Source: Escherichia coli
GTDB lineage: Bacteria > Pseudomonadota > Gammaproteobacteria > Enterobacterales > Enterobacteriaceae
Length of the DNA stretch: 64,000 bases
Assembly: GCF_003334785.1 (NCBI RefSeq)
Contig: NZ_QOWV01000009.1
Direction: 5' to 3' (one strand)
Below are positions 17,080 through 17,372 of this stretch, in pieces (the first letter of the stretch is position 1; every line of letters begins with the position of its first letter). Under the pieces are notes generated by a model. That model was not told the origin of the DNA and made no database searches. It worked only from the letters and a program-made list of their open reading frames with translations. The position numbers and the translations under genes are program-made.

Positions 17080-17372
17080 ATCATTGCGGATGCGCTGCTT
17101 TAGGGTGGCGCATTTGGCATCGACGCATGACTGCCGGATGCGGCGTAAACGCCTTATCCGGCCTACGGTTCAGGCACAGGTTTGTAGGCCTGATAAGACG
17201 CGTAAGCGTCGCATCAGGCAATGGTGCTCGGATGCCGGATGCGGCGTAAACGCCTTATCCGGCCTACGGTTCAGGCACAAGTTTGTAGGCCTGATAAGAC
17301 GGGTAAGCGTCGCATCAGGCAATGGTGCTCGGATGCCGGATGCGGCGTGAACGCCTTATCCGGCCTACGAGA
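17080..17372. repeat. BIME cluster: tandem REP (repetitive extragenic palindrome) units with about 101-bp period
   Basis: GCCGGATGCGGCGT(A/G)AACGCCTTATCCGGCCTAC recurs at about 17133, 17234 and 17335; the inverted partner GTAGGCCTGATAAGACG(C/G)GTAAGCGTCGCATCAGGCA recurs at about 17185 and 17286. Confidence 0.9.

Follow-up and report, generated by a model that had tools for sequence, protein, structure and literature searches.

Repetitive extragenic palindromic (REP) sequences and the bacterial interspersed mosaic elements (BIMEs) that contain them have been known for about 40 years. A BIME-1 consists of one Z1-L-Y unit, in which the long L linker often contains a site for integration host factor (IHF), whereas BIME-2 combines Y and Z2 palindromes with a short S linker, occurs in tandem copies of variable number and is devoid of the L linker with its IHF site (Ton-Hoang 2012). 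Here we describe a REP array located between the genes copA and ybaQ in a stretch of 64,000 nucleotides of Escherichia coli DNA (contig NZ_QOWV01000009.1 of assembly GCF_003334785.1), which we refer to as the window. The array is a BIME-2 that consists of three Y and two Z2 units joined by two short linkers with a period of 101 bp. Taking all observations together, the best explanation, and one that we consider very likely to be correct, is that this BIME-2 sets RNA 3' ends and originated from REP sequences and their REP-associated tyrosine transposase (RAYT).

Several described systems resemble this locus. In REP stabilizers of the malE-malF type, as in the copA-ybaQ array, steady-state 3' ends are found shortly after stable hairpins free of a U-tract (Newbury 1987; Dar and Sorek 2018). 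Where 3' ends depend on Rho, REP hairpins have been found to block exonucleases (Dar and Sorek 2018), and the copA-ybaQ array shares with stabilizers at such ends that Rho termination occurs further downstream. REP325 (naRNA1-6), a BIME-2 at yjdM-yjdN of E. coli K-12, is both a partly Rho-dependent terminator and a stabilizer, and gives rise to a ladder of hairpin-ended RNAs (2026 preprint). Like the copA-ybaQ array, REP325 features alternating Y and Z2 units with two short linkers in tandem, a match to the Rfam family RF02564 above the gathering score, RNA ends past hairpins and Rho dependence downstream. The Z2 units of the two arrays are 36/37 identical. The period is 100 bp in REP325 and 101 bp in the copA-ybaQ array, whose linkers GGTTCAGGCACAGGTT and AATGGTGCTCGGAT compare with the reverse complements of AATTCCCGCACCCTCC and AACGGTGCCGACT in REP325. 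The two arrays differ in size and setting: REP325 contains 12 palindromes and lies within an operon, between genes of the same strand, whereas the copA-ybaQ array contains five and lies between convergent genes. About 60% of REPs sit between convergent genes (2026 preprint).

The array is already known. The literature covers the element class and the subtype, the variation between strains and the connection to gyrase and to RNA 3' ends, and it also contains this particular copy. Its interval is listed as 'BIMEs2 507807-508042, 235 bp' in table DS3 of a Topo-seq study (Sutormin 2018), the coordinates of which have a constant 774-bp offset that we checked on all three REP sites of the window. 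The version of RefSeq record NC_000913.3 used here has no repeat feature annotated at the site, and a specific mention or REP number of the copA-ybaQ array was not found in the 2015 mBio paper, the 2026 preprint or the RepRanger paper. Our additions are small, namely a complete allelic series from 0 to 11 REPs with population counts, and the linking of three published data sets at this site.

A BIME-2 array fills the copA-ybaQ gap

The window corresponds to E. coli K-12 MG1655 read in the opposite direction, with MG1655 coordinate = 525950 minus window coordinate. A search with 1.1 kb of sequence centred on this site gave 100% identity to K-12 genomes. copA and ybaQ are convergent, and most of the 315 bp that separate their stop codons (MG1655 508560-508874) are taken up by the array. 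The array spans 17133-17369 (MG1655 508581-508817) and is wholly extragenic, in line with the usual placement of REPs in 3' regions of same-strand or convergent gene pairs. An initial annotation of the window, made from the sequence alone, had called a tandem REP/BIME array in the 3' region of copA. This identification holds, as does the placement downstream of copA, which ends at 17075.

Over the whole window, Tandem Repeats Finder reports an array at 17132-17369 with a period of 101, 2.4 copies, 97% matches, no indels and a score of 455. The second-best tandem repeat, at 10739-10827 (period 33, 2.7 copies, 73% matches), scores 95. A repeat finder places three 59-nt copies at 17109, 17210 and 17311, at spacings of 101 and 101 nt, and the family of the array is the top direct repeat of a whole-window repeat scan. 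The array had been described as the largest repeat structure in the window, and both scans agree. Autocorrelation at lag 101 from 17132 yields 134/137 matches, the best value window-wide, compared with an average of 66 and at most 76 matches in 50 approximately dinucleotide-preserving shuffles of the surrounding 2.5 kb. The proposed 101-bp periodicity is thus recovered by Tandem Repeats Finder and by autocorrelation; an aperiodic pattern, which would speak against an array, was looked for and not seen. The units differ at only three positions (17178/17279, 17206/17307 and 17249/17350), which makes short-read mapping inside the array unreliable.

The layout is Y-S-Z2-s-Y-S-Z2-s-Y, with five REP palindromes in alternating orientation and repeating segments of 34-35 (Y), 15 (S), 37 (Z2) and 14 nt (s). 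The Y units start at 17133, 17234 and 17335, within 1 nt of the starts given by the initial annotation (17134, 17235 and 17336). The partner palindromes of alternating orientation that it had placed between them are the Z2 units at 17183-17219 and 17284-17320. REPs are imperfect palindromes of about 35 nt with a conserved GTAG (CTAC) foot and a bubble of mismatches in the stem (Ton-Hoang 2012). All five units contain a GTAG/CTAC foot and an internal stem bubble, and have 0-1 mismatch to the Y consensus or to a REP325 Z2 unit. The Z2 assignment is based on the 36/37 identity to REP325 Z2 units, on the BIME-2 definition and on the published table. Alternating Y and Z2 units with short linkers, tandem and well-conserved copies, and a variable copy number are all found at this locus, as in BIME-2.

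Read from copA, the first Y unit (Y1, 17133-17167, minus strand) has one mismatch to the Y consensus and a hairpin of -21.3 and -19.5 kcal/mol on the two strands. Its GTAG foot is read on the minus strand, and the plus-strand end of the unit is ...GGCCTAC. The tail-to-tail linker S1 (17168-17182, 15 nt, GTTCAGGCACAGGTT) leads to Z2a (17183-17219, plus strand), which reads TGTAGGCC... on the plus strand, is 36/37 identical to the REP325 Z2 units and forms a hairpin of -20.5 and -21.4 kcal/mol. A head-to-head linker, s1 (17220-17233, 14 nt, AATGGTGCTCGGAT), connects it to Y2 (17234-17268, minus strand), recognized by its match to the Y consensus and by its fold. The next linker, S2 (17269-17283, GTTCAGGCACAAGTT), has one substitution, and Z2b (17284-17320, plus strand) also has one, located in the inner stem beside the loop (C to G on the plus strand). 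Following the linker s2 (17321-17334), the terminal unit Y3 (17335-17369, minus strand) matches the Y consensus without a mismatch, is separated from the ybaQ stop codon by 21 nt and is kept in every filled allele. The predicted RNA fold of each REP is about -17 to -21 kcal/mol on either strand, and the whole 315-bp gap is predicted to fold far better than shuffled sequences (z = -8.85 on the plus strand, -6.84 on the minus strand).

The array and the other BIME subtype are both intergenic and composed of inverted REP palindromes that include a Y unit. BIMEs in general have been stated to bind IHF (Ton-Hoang 2012), and the initial annotation had extended this to the copA-ybaQ array. That the array is an IHF-binding BIME (RIB/RIP type, BIME-1) is nevertheless most improbable. 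BIME-1 is a single Z1-L-Y copy with a short Z1 palindrome and an IHF site in the long L linker. The copA-ybaQ array has none of these, and instead has Z2 units, 15-nt linkers and tandem copies. The IHF consensus (WATCAANNNNTTR, WATCARNNNNTTR) has no match with at most one mismatch on either strand of the array, where the chance expectation at this threshold is about 0.3-0.6 in 315 bp. The attribution of IHF binding was consequently not upheld for this array: it has no consensus match, its linkers are short and an L linker is missing. As a positive control, the BIME-1 at 35895-35992 of the window carries ATTCAATATATTG, an IHF-like sequence with one mismatch, in its long L linker. This BIME-1 is made up of a short Z1 palindrome (35895-35923), the long linker and an inverted Y, and appears in the Topo-seq table as BIMEs1 489184-489281, for which no gyrase sites are given. 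A REP pair at 24424-24507 (a long Z unit and a Y unit with a 14-nt linker) is listed as BIMEs2 500669-500752, also with no gyrase sites. Rho termination has been mapped next to this pair, to a region at MG1655 501531(+) that is antisense to ybaL.

RNA 3' ends lie past the Z2 hairpins

Published Term-seq data (Adams et al. 2021, eLife, supplementary file 1) place two RNA 3' ends within the array, both on the minus strand of the window. The end at 17277 (MG1655 508673 +) is 7 nt beyond the ACA foot of Z2b; for the end at 17179 (MG1655 508771 +) and the ACA foot of Z2a, this distance is 4 nt. Both are curated as 'orphan' and occur on the ybaQ-sense strand only. On the same strand, about 0.6 kb downstream of the array and antisense to copA, a Rho-dependent termination region has its peak at 16521 (MG1655 509429 +; Adams et al. 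2021, supplementary file 2; score 8.9, p = 1.8e-12). The peak is preceded by a C-over-G stretch at 16812-16653. Upstream/downstream coverage at 509429(+) is 77/9 without bicyclomycin and 147/153 with bicyclomycin. Ends past hairpins and bicyclomycin-sensitive read-through, as characteristic of a REP-type 3'-end stabilizer or Rho-associated attenuator, are thus found at this locus, on the ybaQ-sense strand only. The earlier suggestion that such arrays act as mRNA stabilizers or terminators fits the ybaQ-sense strand, where the Term-seq ends and the Rho region agree with it; for the copA-sense strand, no 3' end is on record.

Two other classes of 3' element were considered and rejected. A scan of 17076-17390 for an intrinsic (Rho-independent) terminator found no GC-rich hairpin directly followed by a U-tract on either strand. 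The class of Translation-linked REPs is defined by a REP at most 15 nt from the stop codon (Liang, Rudd and Deutscher 2015); here the distances are 57 nt (copA) and 21 nt (ybaQ).

These data suggest how the array may act. When transcribed, each REP would form a hairpin of about -17 to -21 kcal/mol that is not followed by a U-tract. RNA polymerase arriving from ybaQ would read through the array, and Rho would stop transcription downstream, inside the antisense copA. Exonucleases acting in the 3'-to-5' direction (PNPase, RNase II) would then shorten the RNA as far as the Z2 hairpins, and some termination or attenuation may also happen at the hairpins themselves. The array would set and protect 3' ends in this way, and would probably attenuate part of the read-through into the opposing gene. 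Such a combination of termination and stabilization has been demonstrated for REP325 (2026 preprint), and the model also agrees with the general scheme proposed for REPs at Rho-dependent ends (Dar and Sorek 2018). By analogy, a like effect on copA mRNA is plausible. The array departs from malE-malF-type REPs in that its curated ends are 'orphan' and restricted to the ybaQ-sense strand, and stabilization of copA or ybaQ is proposed by analogy. As to its origin and spread, the array is most likely a REP/RAYT (TnpA-REP) associated repeat, and not a device built for copA.

Several observations weigh against a role of the array in setting RNA 3' ends. On the copA-sense strand, Adams et al. 2021 list no curated 3' end or Rho region in MG1655 508000-508999, which makes an effect on copA an extrapolation. 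Multi-mapping reads were probably dropped from these data, as Dar and Sorek 2018 state for their own Term-seq data, and this would hide ends beside the near-identical units. The two Term-seq ends on the ybaQ-sense strand could reflect true termination or processing. Genes with a terminal REP showed no general lengthening of mRNA half-life (2026 preprint). At the DNA level, the gyrase signal of the array is small, with two ciprofloxacin-only sites versus 35 at the tldD-yhdP BIME-2. Finally, about 27% of genomes have no REP at the site and a further 8% are otherwise arranged; given the many REP-free strains, any local function must be dispensable.

The array also matches a family of proposed nucleoid RNAs. 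Rfam RF02564 (naRNA4), with a gathering score of 59.5, has two minus-strand matches, at 17187-17264 (89.3 bits) and 17288-17365 (79.9 bits). The plus-strand matches, of 64.0 and 63.6 bits, are likewise above the gathering score. These matches raise the question of whether the array is a source of naRNA4-like RNAs, whose Y-linker-Z2 modules would bind HU, bridge DNA cruciforms and condense the chromosome. The minus-strand Term-seq ends would give RNAs ending in a Y-linker-Z2 module, and Qian et al. 2015 suggested that two hairpins of this kind are enough for any RNA to act with HU. We regard this role as very unlikely. The 2026 preprint, which shares the author Adhya with the 2015 paper, reports that deletion or overexpression of REP325 leaves nucleoid volume unchanged, that a stable ternary complex of naRNA4 with HU and cruciform DNA does not form, and that REP-REP contacts are absent in Hi-C. 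RF02564 effectively models a Y-Z2 pair, so that a match indicates a sequence family and not a function, and many strains have no REP at the site. An Rfam 'naRNA4' call at this array is best read as a Y-Z2 REP pair, not as a demonstrated small RNA.

Weak gyrase signal within the array

Two ciprofloxacin-induced gyrase cleavage sites, with N3E values of 6.2 and 7.6, are located inside the array (Sutormin 2018). Site 507927 (W3110-MuSGS) corresponds to ~17249, in the loop of Y2, and site 507996 to ~17180, at the boundary of S1 and Z2a. With 4,635 sites in 4.52 Mb, the chance expectation is about 0.24 sites in 235 bp, and the enrichment is marginal (Poisson p ~0.025). No sites were recorded in the array with rifampicin plus ciprofloxacin, microcin B17 or oxolinic acid (Sutormin 2018).

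A main role at the DNA level, in which the array would attract gyrase preferentially, or serve as a topological buffer, and so relieve the positive supercoils that build up between the convergent copA and ybaQ, appears unlikely on this evidence. Gyrase cleavage sites are significantly over-represented in BIME-2 elements, with Y cut more than Z2 (published), and two sites in the array exceed the number expected. However, the N3E values are low compared with those of other sites in the same file, which exceed 100, none of the three other conditions gave a site, and most BIME-2 intervals in the table of Sutormin 2018 are without any site. The BIME-2 elements at sucB-sucC and tldD-yhdP belong to the same class, and one of the two copA-ybaQ sites is in a Y loop, as Y is preferentially cut. 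In contrast to the two ciprofloxacin-only sites of the copA-ybaQ array, sucB-sucC has 6 and tldD-yhdP 35 ciprofloxacin sites, and their signal persists with rifampicin. Gyrase binding, which the initial annotation had ascribed to the array, holds for the BIME-2 subtype and applies weakly to this locus.

Copy-number variation among strains

Comparison of complete E. coli genomes revealed alleles with 0, 1, 3, 5, 7, 9 or 11 REPs between copA and ybaQ, which form a series with steps of exactly 101 bp. The gap measures 57 bp in the REP-free allele of enteropathogenic E. coli E2348/69 and of PSJ-42, 113 bp with one REP (a single Y) and 214 bp with three (Y-Z2-Y, for example in O157:H7). It is 315 bp with the five REPs of K-12, 416 bp with seven (E. 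coli B and strain HS), 517 bp with nine (XJ6-3) and 618 bp with 11 (NT1F25 and at least 36 others). Alleles gain or lose whole 101-bp units in register, up to 5.5 units, while the leader and the terminal Y remain unchanged. Slippage, or unequal recombination among the repeats, would be expected to add and remove units in this way while the first and last ones stay fixed. The strain-variable copy number that had been predicted for the array is strongly supported by this range of 0-11 REPs. The empty allele is not a clean minus-insertion: beyond GGCGCAT, its sequence differs up to the ybaQ stop codon, which is TAG instead of TAA.

Population counts were obtained with junction-specific 42-nt queries over 5,426 complete E. 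coli genomes. The leader/Y junction, indicating at least one REP, is present in 3,540 of them (65%), and the Y-S-Z2 junction, indicating at least three, in 2,191 (40%). The empty-site junction was found in 1,453 genomes (27%). Other arrangements account for about 430 (8%), among them genomes with a deleted or replaced ybaQ. These shares agree with two samples taken at even intervals from the ranked genomes. The S linker appears to be specific to the copA-ybaQ locus, as the S-linker junction adjoins the leader junction in the sampled rows. One genome has eight separate exact matches to the Y-S-Z2 junction, which hints at an array of more than 11 REPs or at a duplicated locus.

This variability bears on the possibility that the array is a neutral or selfish repeat that has no selected function at the site and is kept by REP/RAYT dynamics and slippage, which we consider a possible, though not the more probable, account. 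Presence or absence and copy numbers of 0-11 among otherwise collinear genomes are what it would lead one to expect, as are units that come and go in exact register. In vitro, TnpA-REP is able to cleave BIMEs and to recombine them, and variable copy number at a locus is general in BIME-2 (Ton-Hoang 2012). The neutral account explains less well that the array has a measurable influence on the RNA 3' ends of one strand, and the genome-wide correlation by which convergent gene pairs with a REP between them are more highly expressed (2026 preprint). A neutral or selfish view can nonetheless accommodate all the data, and is compatible with a BIME-2 that sets RNA 3' ends: a selfish origin and local RNA effects can coexist.

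The length of the array (0-11 palindromes) might also act as a strain-specific dial, which would set both the extent to which ybaQ-sense antisense RNA runs into the 3' end of copA and the stability of the copA and ybaQ mRNAs. We advance this as a speculative idea with a low chance of being right. If it were true, a change in copy number would tune copper-efflux expression without altering promoters or coding sequence. The natural series of 0, 1, 3, 5, 7, 9 and 11 REPs between the same two genes is well suited to tests of termination, RNA stability and gyrase recruitment.

The interval from copA to ybaP is a small rearrangement hot spot. Some strains have ybaQ deleted, with only its last ~20-55 bases left. 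One such strain (L007, 2877-3179) has kept one Y-Z2 pair and a broken third unit, and another (L008, 2877-3047) has kept the REP-free hairpin. In FDAARGOS_1276 (L009, 2877-3304) and A25 (L010, 2877-3303), an unrelated stretch of ~428 bp follows the copA stop codon and contains very GC-rich palindromic runs such as GGGGGCGGCCAATCGCCGCCGCCCCC. The ybaQ gene of K-12 encodes a HigA-family antitoxin without a toxin partner, and its gap to ybaP is only 137 bp (gene and gap together, 17391-17869). In PSJ-42 (L006, 1111-1381), a gene for a RelE/ParE-family toxin lies directly upstream of ybaQ. REP presence and toxin loss are not strictly linked, because E2348/69 is REP-free yet without the toxin.

Open reading frames over the array

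Open reading frames (ORFs) of 88, 40 and 134 aa on the plus strand and of 46 and 50 aa on the minus strand overlap the array. The notion that the repeated peptides (MRRKRLIRPTVQAQVCRPDK and others) are products of real small protein-coding genes draws on these ORFs and has next to no chance of being correct. The peptide MRRKRLIRPTVQAQVCRPDK is encountered at two places, beginning at 17138 and at 17239, and the two copies are in different frames, since the period of 101 is not divisible by 3. The same peptide is thus carried by different frames in successive units, and the ORFs vanish or change with copy number. The array peptides have no match to an NCBIfam family, and no coding sequence is annotated over the array in MG1655 or in 13 other E. 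coli records inspected. On these three grounds (frame shift, NCBIfam and annotation), coding potential was rejected and the ORFs are spurious and repeat-derived, as the initial annotation had supposed. The array is non-coding, the overlapping ORFs are artefacts, and they should not be annotated as genes. Beyond correct annotation, the array matters little.

Flanking genes and RNAs

copA (b0484; 14571-17075, plus strand) encodes a Cu+ exporting P-type ATPase in an ORF of 834 aa and is annotated in MG1655 and other genomes. A second copA product in MG1655, a soluble Cu(+) chaperone, maps to 14571-14782 (plus strand) at the 5' end of the gene and is annotated as two joined pieces (programmed frameshift). 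The first canonical REP begins 57 nt beyond the end of the copA stop codon at 17075. The 57-nt leader in between contains a hairpin at 17083-17117 (plus strand), adjacent to copA, that is not a canonical REP and folds with -18.0 kcal/mol on the plus strand and -7.2 kcal/mol on the minus strand. This hairpin is present in all ybaQ-bearing alleles and has a clean 10-bp stem, with one G-T wobble and a 12-nt loop, in REP-free alleles. In K-12 its 3' arm is altered (GCGCATTTGG), and a good fold is predicted only as copA-sense RNA.

On the other side of the array, ybaQ (b0483; 17391-17732, minus strand; MG1655 508218-508559), identified from the ORF listing, encodes a HigA-family antitoxin-like helix-turn-helix protein. 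Further along, an Rfam sroB match of 82.1 bits at 18663-18746 (minus strand) corresponds to the ChiX small RNA (MG1655 507204-507287), the end of which overlaps ybaP by two bases. The table of Adams et al. 2021 contains a strong Term-seq 3' end at ChiX, at 507287(+).

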